This document shows positions 4,979 to 21,420 of a stretch of DNA of 64,000 nucleotides, piece by piece (position 1 is the stretch's first letter; each line of letters starts with the position of its first letter). This DNA comes from an uncultured Ohtaekwangia sp. (GTDB taxonomy: Bacteria; Bacteroidota; Bacteroidia; Cytophagales; Cyclobacteriaceae). The stretch spans positions 117,320-181,319 of the forward strand of contig CAYNCP010000002.1 of assembly GCA_964395905.1 (NCBI GenBank), in the 5' to 3' direction. The notes below the pieces were generated by a model. That model saw only the letters and a program-made list of their open reading frames with translations, ran no database searches and was not told the origin of the DNA. A program made the translations under genes and the position numbers.

Positions 4979-6649
4979 CTATTCCCTTTTGTACACCAAT
5001 TTGCCCCCGACAAAAGTTTGCATAATTTTTGCGTCTTTGATTTTTGCAGGGTCCATCTTAATCAGGTCCTGATCTATGATTACAAAATCTGCCAGCTTTC
5101 CAGGTTCCAAAGTTCCCTTGATATTTTCATCAAACGATGCAAAGGCAGCATTCACGGTGTAGGCAGTCAAGGCCTGCTCAACAGAAATTTTTTGTTCGGG
5201 CACCCAGCCATTCGGATTTTGATCATCTAAAGTCTTTCGGGTAACGGCAGCATATATTCCCATCAAGGGAATAGGAGGCGCCACGAACCAGTCGCTTCCA
5301 AATGCGACTTTTGCACGGGCGTCAAACAACGATTTGAAGGCATACGTAGTTTTAATTCGATCGGCTCCAATCACTTTTTCTGCCCAGCGACCATCATCAA
5401 TAGCATGATAAGGTTGCATACTGGCGATAACACCAAGTTTAGCAAACCTGGCTATGTCATTGGGTGCAATGTGTTGGGCGTGTTCAATTCTGAATCTTCT
5501 GTCTTTAACTCCATTTTCATTCCCCACTTTTTCATAAATATTTAATAATGTATTGATGGCCCTGTCACCAATGGCATGCACCATCAATTGCAAGCCTGCG
5601 CTATCGGCACTCGATATCCAGTTGTATAAATCGCCTTCACTGTTCACAAAAAAACCACTGTCTTTGGGTGCATCTGTGAAAGGCTTGAAAAAGGCTGCCG
5701 TATGTGAACCTAGTGATCCATCCACAAATCCTTTGAGTCCACCAATCTTTAGCCATTTGTTTCCTTTGCCATCACTTTTTATTTTTTGTGCAAGGGCAGG
5801 CCATTGATTGAGGGGCATCATGGCATAAATCCGTGTGATCAAGGTGTTGTTGTCTCGGGCACGTTCCAGACCATCCAGGTATCCCGCCATGTGATGAACA
5901 GAAGTGACACCGTGAGAAGCAACGTAGTTCATGGCCGTGGCCAGGGCTTTGTCTATCTGTTGGTTTGTCGGAGGAGGAACTTTCTCAAAAATCATATCCA
6001 TGGCGTTGTCTTTAAACACTCCTGTCAATTCGCCTTTGTTATTTCGAACAATGGTTCCCCCTTTTACATCGCGCACAGATTTTGATATACCTGCCGCTTT
6101 CAATGCGGCAGAGTTTGCCAGGGACATATGACCATCCAGGCGGGTTACCCATACGGGATGATCCGCTGTAAATTGATCAATCCATTCCTTAGTGGGCAGT
6201 TCTCCGCCCCAATTCTCGTGATCCCAGTCACCACCCAAAATCCAGGTGCCCGCGGGCACCGTTGCCGCAAACTCTTTGATTCGCAATGAGAATTCCTCCG
6301 GTGTTTTCGCATCCCTGAGTTGAACCGATGAGAGATTGAAGCCTCCTGTCAGGAAATGAACGTGACTATCAATGAAACCGGGCGTGATAAATTGACCCCT
6401 GGCGTCAATCAATTTGGTTTGCTCTGACTTATACTTTTGGATTTCGTCATTGGAGCCAACTGCAATAATGGTATCACCCGCAACAGCCAATGCCTCAGCA
6501 TAGGGTTGCTTTTCATTGCCTGTCCAAATGGTGGCATTCGAAATGATTAGCTCTGCCCTTGTCAATTCTTGTTGGCAGGACAAAAAAGATAGCAGAATAG
6601 CTGCGCTTGCAAGACAAGTCTTCCAATTGAAATTATGAAATATTGGCAT
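4979..6649 (-). CDS. Amidohydrolase (YtcJ-like, Amidohydro_3), probable lipoprotein
   Basis: PGFIDSHVH, HAIGDRA, RIEHAQ, FGSDW and GKLADFV motifs; lipobox SFLSC. Confidence 0.88.
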   Translation of the reverse strand: MPIFHNFNWKTCLASAAILLSFLSCQQELTRAELIISNATIWTGNEKQPYAEALAVAGDTIIAVGSNDEIQKYKSEQTKLIDARGQFITPGFIDSHVHFLTGGFNLSSVQLRDAKTPEEFSLRIKEFAATVPAGTWILGGDWDHENWGGELPTKEWIDQFTADHPVWVTRLDGHMSLANSAALKAAGISKSVRDVKGGTIVRNNKGELTGVFKDNAMDMIFEKVPPPTNQQIDKALATAMNYVASHGVTSVHHMAGYLDGLERARDNNTLITRIYAMMPLNQWPALAQKIKSDGKGNKWLKIGGLKGFVDGSLGSHTAAFFKPFTDAPKDSGFFVNSEGDLYNWISSADSAGLQLMVHAIGDRAINTLLNIYEKVGNENGVKDRRFRIEHAQHIAPNDIARFAKLGVIASMQPYHAIDDGRWAEKVIGADRIKTTYAFKSLFDARAKVAFGSDWFVAPPIPLMGIYAAVTRKTLDDQNPNGWVPEQKISVEQALTAYTVNAAFASFDENIKGTLEPGKLADFVIIDQDLIKMDPAKIKDAKIMQTFVGGKLVYKRE

Positions 6650-15763: not shown

Positions 15764-18175
15764 TTATTCACTGCGGAGTGCATTTACCGGATTACTTAAA
15801 GTTGCATTTACGATTTGTATGCTGATGGTTATCACTGTAATGAACAGGGTAATAAGAATCGTGTATAGAAAAATCATGAAATTGAGTTGCAGGTGATAAG
15901 CAAATCCGTTCAGCCATTGCTTTGCAAAATAAATCACCAAAGGAATAGCTGCCATATTGGCCACCACTACCAGCAACAAAAATTCCCTTGAAAGCAAAGA
16001 GGCAAGGTTCCACATGCTTGCCCCCAGTATCTTTCTGAGGCCAATCTCTTTGGTTTTGGCTGTAATCAGGAATGAGACCAAACCGAACAAACCTATTGCA
16101 GCTATCAAAATGGTGATGACGGAAAATAGGGAGAATACTTTGGCAGTTTGTTGCTCTTTGGCATATTGATTGGCAAATGTATCACTCAGGAAAAAGTAGC
16201 TGAACTCATTTTGAGGAAAGTAGGTCGTCCAAACACTGCTTAAGGTTTCAATCAGATTTTTTGTATCAGCGGCAGCAAATCGAATGGCGTACAGATAGGA
16301 ATACTCATTGTTGAAATCAATGGCACTGGGAGCGATTTTATTTTGAAGCCCAAGGTCATGGTAGTTTTTGACTACGCCAATCACAATGCCTGCCGGACGC
16401 TGCGATGGGCTGACAATTCTTTTGCCGATGGCATTTTCTGGTGTTTCCCAACCCATCTGTAATACGGCCTCTTCATTGATAATCAAACCATCTTCATCTG
16501 ATTTTCTGTCGGGATCGAAATTGCGACCTGCCAGCAAGGTCAGGTCCAACGTACTTATGTAGTTTTCATCCGCAGCAATGTATTGCATCTCTACCAGGTA
16601 ATCTCCATCTTCCTTGCCCTCCGGGTACGCCCACTGTCCGCGCCAGCCAGATACGGCTGGAAGTGCATTGCAAAACGACACTTCTTTCACCACGGTTTGT
16701 CCTTTCAGTTCGTTCAAGAATCCATCGTACGTATTGCCGTCCGTCAGTTGGGTACGGGCCACATTGATCACCAACACTTCATCGCTGGTGAAACCCAGCT
16801 CGCGACTTTGCATGTATTGCAATTGATTGATAACAATCAGCGTGCCTGCTACCAGGCTTACCGAAATGATAAACTGTGCCACCACGAGTACACGCCTCAG
16901 TTGAACTCCCTTAGAGCTGGTGTGCATTTTTCCCTTCAAAATTTCTGCTGGTTTGTAAGCGGAAATCACCCATGCCGGATAGTAGCCTGCGCATAACGCA
17001 ATGAAAGCCAACAGCGCGAAAATACCGATGATGATTTGGGCATCAAGCAAGGCAGCCATGGTATAATTTTTGGTGAGCAATTGATTGAACATGGGCAAGA
17101 ACATGCCAATGATTGCTATGGCAATTACAAATGAGAAAAGCGTAATGACCAACGACTCACTTAAAAACTGACCCACCAATCGCGTACGCGAAGAGCCCAC
17201 TACTTTCTTGACCCCTACTTCTTTGGCCCGGTAAACTGAGCGAGCCGTGGCCAAATTGATAAAGTTGATGCAGGCCAGTATGATGACAAACAACGCGACA
17301 CCACTCAACAAATAAACCGTAGTGATGCTTCCCAGAGGGCCCATGCCATTGCCGGCATTTGATTGCAGGTAGATCTCTTTCATAGGTTCGAACCCTATAG
17401 CAGCTTTGACGCCCCATTGTTGCATCATTTCACCAGCATACTGGTTATAGAGATTTTGCGCTTTTTTGAAGAAGTCCTGCGCATTGGTGTTGGGTTTGAG
17501 CAGCACATAGTTGCGCATATTAAAATTGCCCCACCCGGTAGTATAACTAAAGTCAGGAGATAACTTCTCAAACGATGCGAATGATGGCAGCAAGTCGGCT
17601 ACCATGTGCGAGTTGGAGGGTATGTCTTTCATCACACCGGTGATATGAAATTCTAACGTATCGTTAAAAATCAAAGTCTTGCCTAAAGCAGACTGACCGG
17701 GAAAATATTTGGCCTCCATCTTTTCCGAGATCACGATGGAGAAAGGTTTTTGTAAAGCCGATTCGGCATTGCCCTGAATGAGCGGAAATGAGAACAAGGT
17801 GAAAAATTCGGGGCTGACGAAATGTGCCTTTTCACGCACTTTCTTTCCTTCGAAAGTTACCATCAAATTGCCGGCACTGCGGGTGTACAATACTTGCTCC
17901 ACTTCCGGAAATTCACGCCTCAATATGTCACCAATGGGCCAGGCATTGGTTTCGTTTCTTCCCCCCTGGCCCTGATCACTGTTGAAGATGGTAATCACCC
18001 GATAAAGCCGGTCTTTATTGGCATGAAACTTATCGAAGGATAGCTCATCCAGTGCATACAACATGATTAATATTCCGGCCGAAAGGCCCAACGCCAACCC
18101 GACCAGGTTGATCAGGGTGTAGCCTTTGAATTTCATCAGGCTGCGCAGGGTTATTTTTAGGTAATGTTGGAGCAT
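15764..18175 (-). CDS. ABC transporter permease, MacB/FtsX family (duplicated Bacteroidota ~800-aa type)
   Basis: INLVGLALG, IILACINFINLATARS..RAKEVGVKKVVGS, AAIGLFGL...KTKEIGLRKILGA. Confidence 0.92.
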   Translation of the reverse strand: MLQHYLKITLRSLMKFKGYTLINLVGLALGLSAGILIMLYALDELSFDKFHANKDRLYRVITIFNSDQGQGGRNETNAWPIGDILRREFPEVEQVLYTRSAGNLMVTFEGKKVREKAHFVSPEFFTLFSFPLIQGNAESALQKPFSIVISEKMEAKYFPGQSALGKTLIFNDTLEFHITGVMKDIPSNSHMVADLLPSFASFEKLSPDFSYTTGWGNFNMRNYVLLKPNTNAQDFFKKAQNLYNQYAGEMMQQWGVKAAIGFEPMKEIYLQSNAGNGMGPLGSITTVYLLSGVALFVIILACINFINLATARSVYRAKEVGVKKVVGSSRTRLVGQFLSESLVITLFSFVIAIAIIGMFLPMFNQLLTKNYTMAALLDAQIIIGIFALLAFIALCAGYYPAWVISAYKPAEILKGKMHTSSKGVQLRRVLVVAQFIISVSLVAGTLIVINQLQYMQSRELGFTSDEVLVINVARTQLTDGNTYDGFLNELKGQTVVKEVSFCNALPAVSGWRGQWAYPEGKEDGDYLVEMQYIAADENYISTLDLTLLAGRNFDPDRKSDEDGLIINEEAVLQMGWETPENAIGKRIVSPSQRPAGIVIGVVKNYHDLGLQNKIAPSAIDFNNEYSYLYAIRFAAADTKNLIETLSSVWTTYFPQNEFSYFFLSDTFANQYAKEQQTAKVFSLFSVITILIAAIGLFGLVSFLITAKTKEIGLRKILGASMWNLASLLSREFLLLVVVANMAAIPLVIYFAKQWLNGFAYHLQLNFMIFLYTILITLFITVITISIQIVNATLSNPVNALRSE

Positions 18176-18222
18176 AAACAGGATTGATTTGAAGTACCAA
18201 ATTCAGTGCGCCCAATGCGTGT

Positions 18223-18312
18223 ACATTAATTATGCCATCAGAAAACAAGTTAATTTCTGACGATTTCTATAATAGCATGTCCTAAATTGGATTTTTTGTT
18301 TCAAAAGCGGAC
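18223..18312 (-). promoter_or_regulatory. Putative sigma-54-type promoter with upstream palindromic activator sites for the permease
   Basis: Minus strand TGGCATAATTAATGT (18237-18223) has -24/-12 spacing with GT instead of GC; imperfect palindromes at 18278-18293 and 18297-18312 (GTCCGCTTTTGAAACA). Confidence 0.3.
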
Positions 18313-18410
18313 GGAATTAGTGGAAATGGAAAACAACCAATGAATGGTAGATTGTCTGCCCCTGTGGTCTGCAATACCCAGCCAAATTTACTCTCACGGA
18401 TTCATCAAAT

Positions 18411-18441
18411 AAAAAAAGCCACTCATCTCTGAATGGCTTTT
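18411..18441 (-). terminator. Terminator downstream of tRNA-Asn
   Basis: AAAAGCCA...TGGCTTTT hairpin with an A-run on the plus strand (U-tract on minus). Confidence 0.65.
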
Positions 18442-18447
18442 GCTCTC

Positions 18448-18480
18448 GCTTGAACCTGCCTGCGACCGGCAGGCTTGAAC
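18448..18480. repeat. REP-like CCTGCC..GGCAGG palindrome flanked by an 8-bp direct repeat (GCTTGAAC)
   Basis: GCTTGAAC-CTGCCTGCGACCGGCAG-GCTTGAAC, read directly. Confidence 0.6.
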
Positions 18481-18495
18481 TAAGGTGAATTGATG

Positions 18496-18569
18496 CTCTC
18501 CCTCTTGGACTTGAACCAAGGACCCTCTGATTAACAGTCAGATGCTCTAACCAGCTGAGCTAAGGGAGA
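18496..18569 (-). tRNA. tRNA-Asn (GTT)
   Basis: TCTCCCT/AGGGAGA acceptor stem, D-arm GCTCAGCTGGTTAGAGC, anticodon arm TCTGA-CTGTTAA-TCAGA, T-loop GGTTCAAGTCC; CCA not encoded. Confidence 0.97.
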
Positions 18570-18597
18570 ATAATACTGCCGGGATTTCTCAAATGGC

Positions 18598-18650
18598 CAG
18601 ATGCTCTAACCAACTGAGCCCTGCCTGCCGGCAGGCAGGTAAGGGAGAAT
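18598..18650 (-). pseudogene. Partial (5'-half) copy of tRNA-Asn interrupted by a 20-bp perfect palindrome
   Basis: 33 nt match 18539-18571 with one mismatch, split by CCTGCCTGCCGGCAGGCAGG at 18620-18639. Confidence 0.8.
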
Positions 18651-18807
18651 GCTTCCTGTTTTAAAACGGGAGTGCAATATTAAGGGTTTGAGCCCTAAAT
18701 CACCAAGGGTGACTCCAAATTTTCCTAGTATCTGGCTTCTGTCCCAAATTCGATACCAGGGGCTTCAAAAAGAGGGCCTCCTTTTGGAAGCCCATTTTCT
18801 TTTTGAA

Positions 18808-21420
18808 TTACCTGGTTGCTCCCAGATAAATAGAATTAAAAATCAGTTTGTACGTATTTCGAGACTGACCGCGAAATTGTGGCCTGAAGCCAATCAGAAT
18901 GACATTTCCAGCTCCATGTTTCACATTCATCATGGCGCCTTTGTTTTTTATCCTGCTTTCGCCCAGTGCCCAACCGCTCATCAATAAATCTGAGCTGGCG
19001 TAAGTAGCCGCAGCAACAACATCTGGCCTCGGAACGGGTAGCTTTATCAACTCATTACCTCCTTCAGCTTTGCGTGAAGGTACGATCGTTTCGAAAGCAC
19101 GGCTCCGCGAAAAAGATGCCGCGGCCTCCTCCCTCATGCCAAAGGCCAATGGATCTTTGTTGTTTACCTTCATCCGGATAATTGAACCGGGAATAAAGAA
19201 CGAGCTGGAAGAAAATCCTTTGGTAATGTTTTCAACGGGCAGCCCAAATTCATCAATGGCCAGGTCGCAGGCCTGATCAAACATGATCAGCACGCCTCCG
19301 TTAGACACATAATTTTTTAGAGAAAGGGTTCCTTCCAACCCGATACCCCCTACATAAGGTTCGGGCATGGTGCCCGGGCGATGACCTATCAAGATTTCTT
19401 CAGGGGATTGAGAAGGAAAAATGACAGCTGAGTACCTGCTCAAGTCTTTCCCTTTGATATCCTCATTGTGCAACGTGTCCAGGTCAAATTCAAATTGCTC
19501 CAGTACCCAGCGGGTCCATCCCTCGTCTATGTTGGCGTCCCAGGATTTGTAAAGCCCAACTTTCACCTTCTTTAAGTCTTTAACTCCTGCAGGCTTCGAT
19601 GAAATACCTGTAAAGCTTAACCCCAGATCCTTGCTTAACCCGGAGATGCGGCTTTGCGTTTCACTTCCTTTTTCGATGACAAAGGTGCCTGGTTCAAAAG
19701 TATTTTTCCCGTCTATGAATGAAGTTTGCGCAATGGCGATTTTTTCTCCATTTTTTTGAAGCCGGTTGATTGCTGTAGCCGTTTGATTTTCCTTGGGGTC
19801 TAATGCAAATCCAAACCCTGCGCTACCGGAAACTTTTCCTTCACCTACTTTCACATTTGCAGTTACTTTCTTCGTCTTTGCTGTAAAGGAGGAGGTGGTT
19901 CTGTCTACCTGCACCCCCATTGACATAGGCAATGTCCAGCCGGTGAGGTCATACGGTGCGATGGGAGGTCCGCCCGGATACTGATACAAGTCAGGATAGT
20001 TTTGTTTTTCCATCAAATCTGACAAATAGGGTCGGAAGGGCTGTGCACCATACATGATGTACGTTCCTGCTTCATACTCCTTGTCACCCACTTTAAATTT
20101 GCCTGTTGCTTCTTCTACCTCAATGCCTCCCAACAGCATAATGTTGATCAGGTTAGCAGCCTCTTGTTTATCCCATTGATCTTTGGGGACAATATAAGCG
20201 AATGCACCCTTGGAATCTTCAATGGCGTCTTTACCCATCGAATAGATGTTGTAGAGCAGCTCATCGTGTTTTTCTGAGGCCAGATCAAGCACGGCCATGG
20301 ATGCCTCTAACATGTAGTCAACTGCATCTCTGAAGTGGGATTCTCCGCCTTTCCACGGATAGGGATAGAAAATTTCCGTTCCGTCCACTGTTTTTGAAAT
20401 GCCATCGCGTGCCGATCTTCCTCCGACTGCTTTGGGAATGGAGTCGGGCGGGTAGAACCTTGGAGTAGGCGAAGTGTGTGCGGTCTCTGTAAGAATTCCA
20501 ATTTGATTATGATAATACGGGGCGGTTCGCATGCCACCGTTCCACCACATCTCATAAGTGGTCATAGAGATGGCTCCCGGCATTTTCTTCATGGCAAAGC
20601 GATTGGCCATAGCTGTACCTACCAGGTTAACTCCCGTAGTTACGCCTGGGTGTATTTTCATATTCACCGGGCTTCTGAAGGGCGGGATAAAAATCCTTGC
20701 CCAGGCAGGAGAGGACTGATGATGGTTGTGCACAATCTGCGGGTACCATTCATTGTACAGCACATTCATCACCGCCTTGGTTTCTGGCATGTTGCCCATG
20801 AACCAGTCGCGGTTGTTGTCATGTCCCACGTATTCCTGATAGAGAATAGGAGGTCCTGAGGTTTCATAAATAGTGCCCAGGTTTTTTCGATACCATGCGC
20901 CTTCAATGTCGAGCCCGTCCGGATTAATCACGGGTACAACAAGCGTAACTACGTTGTCACGTATTTTTTTCATTTCGTCTGACTCCTCAGCGGCAATGCG
21001 GTAGAGCAGTTCGGGCGTCATCTGCGCATGTGCTTTTTCCGAGGCGTGCATTCCGCCATCAAACCATATGATGGCTTTCCCTTCCTTGGACAACTGTTGT
21101 GCCTCAGCCTCCGAAAGTCGCGCACGGGCCATTTTCTCGCTGATGTTTTTCCACTTGTCAAGCGATTTCATATTTTCTTCGCTTGAAATGAAAATCAATT
21201 TGATAGGCCTGCCACGAACTGACTTTCCTATTTCTGTCACCTTTACACGGTCAGTAGCTGCATCCAGCTTTTCATAGTAAGCCAGCATTTGATCGTAGGT
21301 GGCCATTTTGTAATCAGCTCCGGGTTCGAAGCCAAATGTTTCGGATGGCTTTGGAATTTGGCCGAATGTGGTGCCTGTAATCACCATAAAAGCCAGGCAT
21401 ATTATTTTAAACTTCATCAT
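18808..21420 (-). CDS. Secreted M14-family zinc carboxypeptidase-like protein with C-terminal GATase-like domain
   Basis: Signal peptide; GGMHASE, INPDG, GHDNNRDW, HNHHQ; C-terminal IDEGWTRWVLEQF and GFRPQFRGQ. Confidence 0.85.
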   Translation of the reverse strand: MMKFKIICLAFMVITGTTFGQIPKPSETFGFEPGADYKMATYDQMLAYYEKLDAATDRVKVTEIGKSVRGRPIKLIFISSEENMKSLDKWKNISEKMARARLSEAEAQQLSKEGKAIIWFDGGMHASEKAHAQMTPELLYRIAAEESDEMKKIRDNVVTLVVPVINPDGLDIEGAWYRKNLGTIYETSGPPILYQEYVGHDNNRDWFMGNMPETKAVMNVLYNEWYPQIVHNHHQSSPAWARIFIPPFRSPVNMKIHPGVTTGVNLVGTAMANRFAMKKMPGAISMTTYEMWWNGGMRTAPYYHNQIGILTETAHTSPTPRFYPPDSIPKAVGGRSARDGISKTVDGTEIFYPYPWKGGESHFRDAVDYMLEASMAVLDLASEKHDELLYNIYSMGKDAIEDSKGAFAYIVPKDQWDKQEAANLINIMLLGGIEVEEATGKFKVGDKEYEAGTYIMYGAQPFRPYLSDLMEKQNYPDLYQYPGGPPIAPYDLTGWTLPMSMGVQVDRTTSSFTAKTKKVTANVKVGEGKVSGSAGFGFALDPKENQTATAINRLQKNGEKIAIAQTSFIDGKNTFEPGTFVIEKGSETQSRISGLSKDLGLSFTGISSKPAGVKDLKKVKVGLYKSWDANIDEGWTRWVLEQFEFDLDTLHNEDIKGKDLSRYSAVIFPSQSPEEILIGHRPGTMPEPYVGGIGLEGTLSLKNYVSNGGVLIMFDQACDLAIDEFGLPVENITKGFSSSSFFIPGSIIRMKVNNKDPLAFGMREEAAASFSRSRAFETIVPSRKAEGGNELIKLPVPRPDVVAAATYASSDLLMSGWALGESRIKNKGAMMNVKHGAGNVILIGFRPQFRGQSRNTYKLIFNSIYLGATR

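Follow-up and report, generated by a model that had tools for sequence, protein, structure and literature searches.

The Ssn proteins are single-domain GIY-YIG nucleases of single-stranded DNA that cut beside dispersed GC-rich hairpins (NTS/Ssn-related motif, SRM) flanking their own genes (Chenal et al. 2025, PMC11893778); the same authors remark on the layout of hairpin, gene and hairpin, which resembles that of an insertion sequence (IS). Mitochondrial palindromic GC clusters, such as GC42 of yeast, proliferate, transfer between species, merge and shuffle; putative target-site duplications have been described for them, with no identified mobilising enzyme (PMC4478555). SegB of phage T4 is a free-standing GIY-YIG homing endonuclease encoded in a tRNA cluster, which cuts tRNA-gene DNA and spreads together with flanking sequence (PMC2330249). 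Here we describe the surroundings of the tRNA-Asn(GTT) gene in a 64-kb stretch of DNA (hereafter the window) from an uncultured Ohtaekwangia sp. (contig CAYNCP010000002.1). The gene is nested between two partial copies of itself, a 5′ part upstream and a 3′ part downstream, which are cut by GC-rich palindromes at the junction of tRNA positions 9 and 10 and in the T-loop, respectively; the upstream palindrome, a perfect 20-mer, we name PAL. We think it rather probable that this locus is an example, without an open reading frame (ORF), of a recurrent cassette that inserts at tRNA genes and combines a palindrome with a partial tRNA duplication. We did not find such a cassette in the literature: no relevant paper on the 20-mer or its 12-nt core emerged from what is searchable, and the combination of GIY-YIG, tRNA and palindrome led only to SegB, mitochondrial elements and attachment-site (att) fragments left by integrases.

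The features of the locus are given below in the order in which they are met on the minus strand. Numbers with the prefix L denote comparison loci; L121 to L127 were fetched as loci encoding the closest homologues of the M14 peptidase gene that neighbours the tRNA, and were then aligned.

18663–18722, minus strand: conserved upstream block, probable tRNA promoter region; 53–59 of 60 positions shared by the window, L121 and L126; the empty-site loci L125 and L127 have the block as well.
18640–18650, minus strand: pseudo 5′ end, a copy of tRNA positions −2 to 9, ATTCTCCCTTA, attached to the native leader (direct repeat D2; minus-strand reading; alignment of relatives).
18620–18639, no strand: PAL, perfect 20-bp palindrome CCTGCCTGCCGGCAGGCAGG with 10-nt arms and no loop, between the copies of positions 9 and 10.
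18598–18619, minus strand: copy of tRNA positions 10–31 (D-arm to 5′ strand of the anticodon stem), GCTCAGTTGGTTAGAGCATCTG, 21 of 22 nt identical (direct repeat D1).
18570–18597, minus strand: 28-nt spacer GCCATTTGAGAAATCCCGGCAGTATTAT from the split copy to the intact gene; no ORF.
18495–18569, minus strand: intact tRNA-Asn(GTT) (ARAGORN; Rfam RF00005, 69.7 bits), 74–75 of 75 positions identical in L121 and L126.
18474–18485, minus strand: pseudo 3′ half, piece 1, CCTTAGTTCAAG; T-arm positions 49–59 and the preceding C of the variable loop, 11 of 12 identical (direct repeat D4).
18455–18473, no strand: PAL-related hairpin of 19 nt with the same arms as PAL, inserted in the pseudo 3′ half at its T-loop; it reads CCTGCCTGCGACCGGCAGG on the plus strand and CCTGCCGGTCGCAGGCAGG on the minus strand.
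18441–18454, minus strand: pseudo 3′ half, piece 2, TTCAAGCGAGAGCA; decayed 3′ strand of the T-stem and 3′ strand of the acceptor (direct repeats D6 and D12).
18414–18441, minus strand: hairpin and T run resembling an intrinsic terminator, closing the tRNA unit.

The conserved leader is therefore followed on the minus strand by the pseudo 5′ end, PAL, the copy of positions 10–31, the spacer and the working tRNA-Asn gene. A first-pass annotation, made from the letters of the window, had claimed that 33 nt of the 5′ part of the tRNA recur upstream with one D-loop change, that the palindrome lies exactly between A9 and G10 without a flanking target duplication, and that the copy ends in the anticodon stem. 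The sequence agrees with all of this: the duplicated segment runs from position −2 to position 31, and its sole mismatch is a C>T change in the D-loop. Start-to-start spacings between the upstream copy and the gene are 59 and 79 nt. Within the 28-nt spacer is CCGGCAG, a motif also present in spacers of comparable units. Chance does not account for PAL, which has one exact copy in the window and no match in 100 shuffles, even with three mismatches allowed; hairpins of the form CCTGCC-N0-12-GGCAGG are confined to the tRNA-Asn gene (0.06 expected). The whole 64 kb holds one exact PAL and one variant, both beside this gene. That variant belongs to the mirror-image 3′ copy, which is an addition to the earlier observation, made for the upstream side only. 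The downstream copy begins 9 nt beyond the 3′ end of the intact tRNA and is more decayed than the upstream one; in the locus closest to the window, L121, its T-arm piece is perfect (CCTTGGTTCAAG).

Comparison of orthologous loci was particularly instructive. DNA identity of the M14 gene among them is 78–87%, which places them in different species, and the number of units varies between zero and two. In L125 and L127 the promoter-like block leads directly into the tRNA, an empty site. L126 has one 5′ unit, arranged as TTCTCCTTTA, the identical 20-mer and GCTCAGCTG and continuing to a spacer end ATCCGGCAAAGTA and the intact tRNA, and lacks a 3′ unit; in the window there is one unit on each side, 5′ and 3′; L121 has two tandem 5′ units and a 3′ unit, with the hairpin CCTGCCTCAGGCAGG at the equivalent place in the T-loop. 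L122 to L124, with M14 identity of 84–85%, have no tRNA at the equivalent position. The 20-mer is thus not peculiar to the window; it is present base for base in L121 and L126 (20 of 20 positions), whereas the adjacent D-arm copy and spacer are only 55–65% identical among the three loci. What distinguishes the relatives is a whole unit of 79–84 nt, composed of palindrome, D-arm copy, spacer and new 5′ end; the states seen among the orthologous loci are empty or whole unit, and never a duplicate free of a palindrome. The proposal that a former complete tandem tRNA gene had been inactivated by the palindrome consequently finds no sign here, since the relatives do not differ by a palindrome added to an older duplicate. 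The empty sites may reflect either the ancestral state or the exact removal of a unit through recombination between the repeats, and both histories call for two events or more. The first of the two L121 units (5770–5830) contains a different palindrome, TCCCGCCAAGGCGGGA, at the 9/10 junction. We also noted that the D-arm copy of this first unit is nearer to that of the window unit than is that of the PAL-bearing second unit of L121, which suggests that palindromes are exchangeable at a fixed site.

Another key observation is that the same architecture recurs well beyond these relatives. A metagenome scan with the pattern CCTTA-CCTGCC-N0-10-GGCAGG-GCTCA returned 41 contigs, most of which contain tRNA positions 1–9, PAL, GCTCAG, a spacer of 17–214 nt and then an intact tRNA gene, either for Asn(GTT) or for Thr(TGT). 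The 8 innermost nucleotides of the palindrome were left free by the pattern and mostly read TGCCGGCA. In two of these contigs, L158 and L160, the tRNA-Asn and promoter block of the window are found among other genes, and the palindromes are 19-nt variants. A short hairpin often stands 3′ of PAL (GCTCAGAACTGAGC at tRNA-Asn, GCTCAGCGGAACCGCTGAG at the tRNA adjoining the L133 unit) and, being built from local tRNA sequence, looks target-derived. Elsewhere, PAL interrupts partial tRNA copies at positions 12/13, 14/15, 21/22 and 31/32 and in the T-loop, all of which are single-stranded or junction positions. Within 120 genome stretches among the matches listed, 15 of 125 PAL copies lie no more than 400 nt from a tRNA, an enrichment over the 3.6% of positions that this zone takes up. 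Flanking duplicates of at least 10 nt accompany 43 of the 97 tRNAs in all fetched loci, a frequency that is not a genome-wide estimate because the loci were chosen for PAL. These duplicates are polarised, 5′ parts upstream and 3′ parts downstream; the exceptions, L040, L043 and L157, are explained by neighbouring homologous tRNA genes. Both sides are occupied in L004, L029, L039, L074, L084 and L121 as well as in the window, which together cover several phyla. Other GC-rich palindromes replace or split arms of the tRNA copies in L118, L002, L129 and L116.

Two of these comparison loci have peculiarities of their own. Upstream of the intact tRNA-Gly(GCC) of L118 (~2450–2781) are three tandem pseudo-tRNA-Gly units in which the anticodon arm is replaced by a palindrome, once TCCCGACTTGTCGGGA and twice GATCCGCCTGAGGCGGAT, each unit being followed by an identical 37-nt spacer. 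L085 (1–137, a contig end of Agriterribacter humi strain YJ03) holds an otherwise complete-looking tRNA with anticodon TCT and the exact 20-mer in its D-loop, in the arrangement GTAGCTCAGTTGGATA, PAL, GAGCATTAGCCTTCTAAGCTGAGGG; the contig stops in the T-arm, and this may be a working gene, a spare or a pseudo-copy.

A genome scan for the exact 20-mer, with one genome per species, found it in at least 120 genome stretches from more than ten phyla; the source genome is not among the matches listed. Carriers include Patescibacteria/Candidate Phyla Radiation (CPR) lineages, Omnitrophota, Bacteroidota, Planctomycetota, Gamma- and Deltaproteobacteria, Bdellovibrionales, Thermodesulfovibrionales, Elusimicrobia, Verrucomicrobia and Chloroflexi, and, among the Bacteroidota, the cultured isolates Winogradskyella echinorum, Flagellimonas yonaguniensis, Longitalea luteola, Aquiflexum lacus, Agriterribacter humi and Aestuariivivens sediminis. 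A further 35 stretches are from viral contigs, one of which (IMGVR_UViG_3300037242_000417, 29.5 kb; L189, L196 and L197) has at least six exact copies. The suggestion in the first-pass annotation of a minimal palindromic mobile unit is supported by this identity across relatives and many phyla, PAL behaving like a dispersed unit of that kind. The flanks of 165 copies have only a weak preference, for A or G at −1 and T at +1. They are enriched in direct repeats of at least 6 nt (24% versus 5% of controls) and in inverted repeats (15% versus 4.5%), which fits a repair of breaks that copies local templates, together with insertion into the loops of hairpins. Exact direct repeats of 7–8 nt abut PAL in 6 of the 165 copies, and PAL is often found within or beside tandem arrays of ~7 nt (such as AATTACG, GAGTGAT and TCTAAAA; L050, L058, L101, L045, L082 and L005). 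Judged by eye, it occupies in L031, L091, L019 and L049 the loop of a larger hairpin with arms of the GTCAT...ATC type that look like Ssn-related motifs (PMC11893778); only L031 matched a loose version of the published SRM pattern. That PAL is itself an Ssn-related motif was considered and rejected: neither strand of the window matches the pattern HGTCWY...RNCYNB, and SRM-like arms flank 1 of 125 PAL copies.

In some loci the space between the split copy and the tRNA is occupied by a gene. In L037, L106 and L118 the PAL-split 5′ copy and the intact tRNA are separated by an ORF for a GIY-YIG protein, which in L106 ends within the tRNA; with L010 and L039, this makes five loci that have a small GIY-YIG gene at ~300 nt or less from PAL. 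L039 (880–1290, from a metagenome-assembled genome of Gammaproteobacteria) is two-sided like the window: the 5′ copy of its tRNA-Val is split by a different palindrome, of 33 nt, and followed by a truncated remnant of a decaying GIY-YIG gene, and a long insert in the T-loop of its 3′ copy contains the exact 20-mer. GIY-YIG ORFs are also found downstream of tRNA-Asn in four metagenome contigs (L142, L162, L165 and L156); in L165 the ORF is followed, and in L156 preceded, by a split or partial 3′ tRNA copy. The protein type linked to tRNA-Asn has 162 homologues, all of them PF01541, which in Flavobacteriaceae isolates are annotated as ‘GIY-YIG nuclease family protein’. One is encoded in the complete genome of Gilvibacter sp. 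SZ-19 (L204, 987–1482) by a gene for 93 aa, on the same strand as tRNA-Asn and 140 nt downstream of that gene; neither the 20-mer nor an obvious partial tRNA copy is present within 1.2 kb of it. The PAL-linked proteins are ~80–95 aa long and their nearest solved structures are of UPF0213 (1ywl, 1zg2), with SLX1 more distant; no NCBIfam family scores above its cut-off for them. The first-pass annotation had looked to REP/RAYT for the mobiliser. Small GIY-YIG genes are the only nuclease genes that we found linked to PAL in other genomes, where no search for REP-associated tyrosine transposases (RAYT) or IS200 was made. We also considered whether the 28-nt spacer of the window is the 3′-end remnant of such a gene, given that GAGAAATCCCGGCAG is suggestive when set against codons for EK..KSG; we rejected this idea, as a six-frame profile search of 45 spacers gave noise, the forward frames being no better than the reverse ones.

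The tRNA-Asn gene is the sole tRNA gene of the window (ARAGORN, Rfam), and nothing other than this tRNA exceeded the threshold in an Rfam scan of 17500–19500. Around it are genes for a TonB-dependent receptor, a MacB/FtsX permease and M14 and M20 peptidases; the top homologues of the M14 peptidase are from named Cyclobacteriaceae, which marks the genome as one of Bacteroidota, and the sequence is best matched by a bioreactor metagenome. The conserved block at 18663–18722 is probably the promoter region of the tRNA, to judge from what is known of Bacteroidota promoters; it contains TAATATTG (18682–18675, minus strand), which resembles the Bacteroidota −7 box TAnnTTTG. A scan for sigma-70-type promoters, with a tool that lacks Bacteroidota promoters, gave a single weak match, in the spacer, that was no better than those in shuffles. 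The terminator of the upstream M14 gene is at 18793–18774 and that of the tRNA itself at 18441–18414. As the split copies lie between the two, the precursor transcript probably includes them; the leader has a predicted fold of −40.1 kcal/mol (z = −3.2 versus shuffles). Co-transcription as a structured leader, which the first-pass annotation had anticipated, is accordingly plausible for the upstream copy. At this locus the units themselves are probably passive, transcribed as a structured leader and trailer that would be removed in tRNA processing. Elsewhere in the window there is one other GC-rich perfect palindrome, GGTGCCCGCGGGCACC (6245–6260; 8-nt arms, 88% GC); it lies within a 556-aa ORF (4979–6649, minus strand) and may simply be coding sequence, or else a small palindromic insert that keeps the frame.

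We hypothesize the following course of events. An insertion or duplication would place ~80 nt in the 5′ part of tRNA-Asn, so that the original 5′ end (positions −2 to 31, with the native promoter and leader) becomes split at 9/10 by the fixed 20-bp palindrome; a spacer and a fresh 5′ end would then restore an intact gene, with the segment that was hit left in duplicate. The native leader is joined to the split copy and the spacer to the working gene, and it is thus the working 5′ end that would be the new one. A mirror-image event at the T-loop would yield the split 3′ half downstream. Fuller versions elsewhere carry a gene for a single-domain GIY-YIG protein of ~80–95 aa between the split copy and the intact tRNA, and such a nuclease may make or spread the units by cutting in or beside tRNA DNA, with repair or recombination to follow; for the window, it would be encoded elsewhere in the genome or have been lost. 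The near-invariant promoter block and tRNA could act as homology arms for spread between species by recombination. The absence of an ORF between split copy and tRNA marks the window units as the ORF-less form, like most of the 41 metagenome examples, and the combination of whole-unit insertion or deletion, strict polarity, a fixed junction and the existence of ORF-bearing versions is our ground for reading them as tRNA-gene cassettes of this kind.

Several results weigh against the cassette reading. A six-frame profile search detected no GIY-YIG domain in the 64-kb window, as the first-pass annotation had remarked of nucleases, and a profile search detected no remnant of a nuclease gene in the 28-nt spacer. 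Among the matches listed, 88% of the 125 PAL copies are not near any tRNA, and a GIY-YIG gene lies within ~300 nt of PAL in only ~5 of the 120 genome stretches; the link is therefore statistical and not obligatory. Moreover, a simple homing model fails to explain how the regenerated intact tRNA escapes being cut again.

We have weighed the cassette against other explanations of the same locus. The window comes from an assembly of metagenome type, and palindromes and short repeats can mislead assemblers; we nevertheless give practically no credence to an assembly or library artefact. In the separate Logan assembly of that run (X1), the source of the window, 18572–18900 is identical at every position, and a sand-metagenome contig from an unrelated study (X3) covers 18614–18890, including PAL and its junction with the copy of positions 1–9, with 1 substitution and one 1-nt insertion. 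The duplication is thus not the artefact that the first-pass annotation had allowed for; the unit is also present at the orthologous site in other species, and PAL is present in cultured isolates such as W. echinorum, A. lacus and L. luteola. Only slightly less far-fetched, in our estimation, is the idea that the repeats are att-type scars of a tyrosine-integrase element that was once in tRNA-Asn and was later lost. The 3′ copy does start in the T-arm, which is reportedly a known sublocation of integrases within tRNA genes. Partial tRNA duplicates beside intact genes are, moreover, the classic signature of integrative elements (PMC9897764). Yet between the repeats there is neither an island nor an integrase, only spacers of 9 and 28 nt without an ORF; a 5′ part duplicated upstream is rarely produced by integrase att sites, here it is accompanied by a 3′ part downstream, and both copies are interrupted by palindromes. 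Precise excision would, in addition, leave no duplicate. The att-like scar that the first-pass annotation had offered as one of its two explanations does not fit this locus.

Two alternatives deserve more weight. We regard it as unlikely, though to be taken seriously, that two unrelated events are superimposed, which was the first inference of the first-pass annotation: a tandem duplication of the 5′ region that decayed, and a later landing in the dispensable copy of a palindrome of the GC-cluster type, or of the type of repetitive extragenic palindromic sequences (REPs) or miniature inverted-repeat transposable elements, with a preference for single-stranded loops or stem bases. Such independence would suit the many PAL copies that are away from tRNAs, often central in larger hairpins or between short direct repeats, and the existence of partial tRNA copies that have other palindromes and no CCTGCC...GGCAGG hairpin nearby; the first unit of L121, with its different palindrome at the same 9/10 site, is also in its favour. 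It is at odds with orthologous loci that are either empty or complete and in no case hold a duplicate devoid of palindrome, with the recurrence of the 9/10 junction in 41 contigs and two tRNA species, with copies that are always partial and correctly polarised, and with spacers that share the CCGGCAG motif across lineages. Less likely still is that the half-copies, as structured ends of the tRNA-Asn precursor, benefit the host (for example by signalling processing, by adding stability or by acting as a tRNA-like decoy) and are kept for an RNA function rather than as selfish DNA. They are within the transcription unit, the leader fold has the z-score given above, PAL is conserved at 20 of 20 positions across species, and in a Flavobacteriia-type set the first 44 nt (copy of the 5′ end, PAL and the GCTCAGAACTGAGC hairpin) are near-invariant while the remaining spacer has diverged. 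However, an alignment of 21 Flavobacteriia-type units contains conservation only, with no compensatory base changes in the leader; close relatives that lack the unit keep an identical tRNA and promoter block, and copy number varies from 0 to 2. The occurrence of the 20-mer in coding regions, other intergenic DNA and phage contigs of many phyla is a further misfit with a role specific to the RNA of tRNA-Asn.

The cassette reading may be taken further, in a form that we put forward tentatively as possible: PAL and the split tRNA copies would be the footprint of an unrecognised minimal mobile system, in which a tiny structure-specific GIY-YIG nuclease acts at single-stranded loops or helix junctions of DNA that forms hairpins, above all in tRNA genes, and repair writes in the 20-nt hairpin and duplicates the neighbouring sequence, ORF-less units being kept or re-made in trans. 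This would explain why the 20-mer is constant across phyla and phages while its surroundings drift, and the duplication of neighbouring sequence would allow essential tRNA genes to survive the hit. If true, PAL would be among the smallest mobile DNAs known (20 bp), common base for base to free-living Bacteroidota, CPR, Omnitrophota, Planctomycetota, Proteobacteria and phages. Selfish elements would then colonise essential, ultra-conserved genes, and tRNA genes would be remodelled but not destroyed. Horizontal transfer would have ready-made homology arms in the conserved tRNA and promoter, and a mini-nuclease specific for hairpins or structures, with its defined partner of 20 nt, would be of interest as a tool. 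For annotation, split half-copies could be mis-called or break assemblies. To this the window adds a clean natural series, in which one orthologous site holds 0, 1 or 2 units, and an ORF-less case in which 5′ and 3′ units flank one gene.

How, then, does the locus compare with known systems? REPs are lineage-specific and have a conserved tetranucleotide, GTAG or similar, beside the stem. PAL resembles these elements, and the REPINs and RAYTs associated with them, in that they too are short, scattered, non-autonomous GC-rich palindromes, believed to owe their mobility to a hairpin-recognising enzyme supplied in trans; it differs in its identity across phyla and in having no GTAG-type tetranucleotide (its flanks are TTA/PAL/GCT on the minus strand), and REPs are not known to be tied to split tRNA duplicates. 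SegB shares with the fuller versions a GIY-YIG gene lodged among tRNA genes. It is a larger, multi-domain homing endonuclease, however, and neither a palindrome nor a partial tRNA duplication is known to be involved. The mitochondrial GC clusters are likewise tiny, GC-rich, proliferating palindromes, but they are organellar, have other sequences and are without a systematic link to split tRNA copies or GIY-YIG genes. In att duplication (PMC9897764), a partial tRNA copy similarly comes to lie beside an intact gene that is regenerated by the incoming DNA; there, however, the repeats bracket integrase elements on the kilobase scale and normally involve the 3′ part only, whereas the inserts in the window are ~35–80 nt, occur on both sides and have each partial copy split by a palindrome.

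The closest published system is that of Ssn and SRM, with which our loci share small single-domain GIY-YIG genes linked to short GC-rich hairpin repeats, in many copies and several phyla. In contrast to PAL, which is one identical 20-mer across phyla, SRM variants are lineage-specific; the PAL-linked proteins match UPF0213 structures best, and PMC11893778 makes no mention of tRNA genes or partial tRNA duplicates. On the whole, the interpretation in the first-pass annotation is partly supported, in that we class the locus with miniature palindromic mobile DNA but see in it neither a decayed complete tandem gene nor an integrase scar. Each of the other systems shares one aspect with it, and none combines a palindrome fixed across phyla with polarised, split tRNA duplicates.

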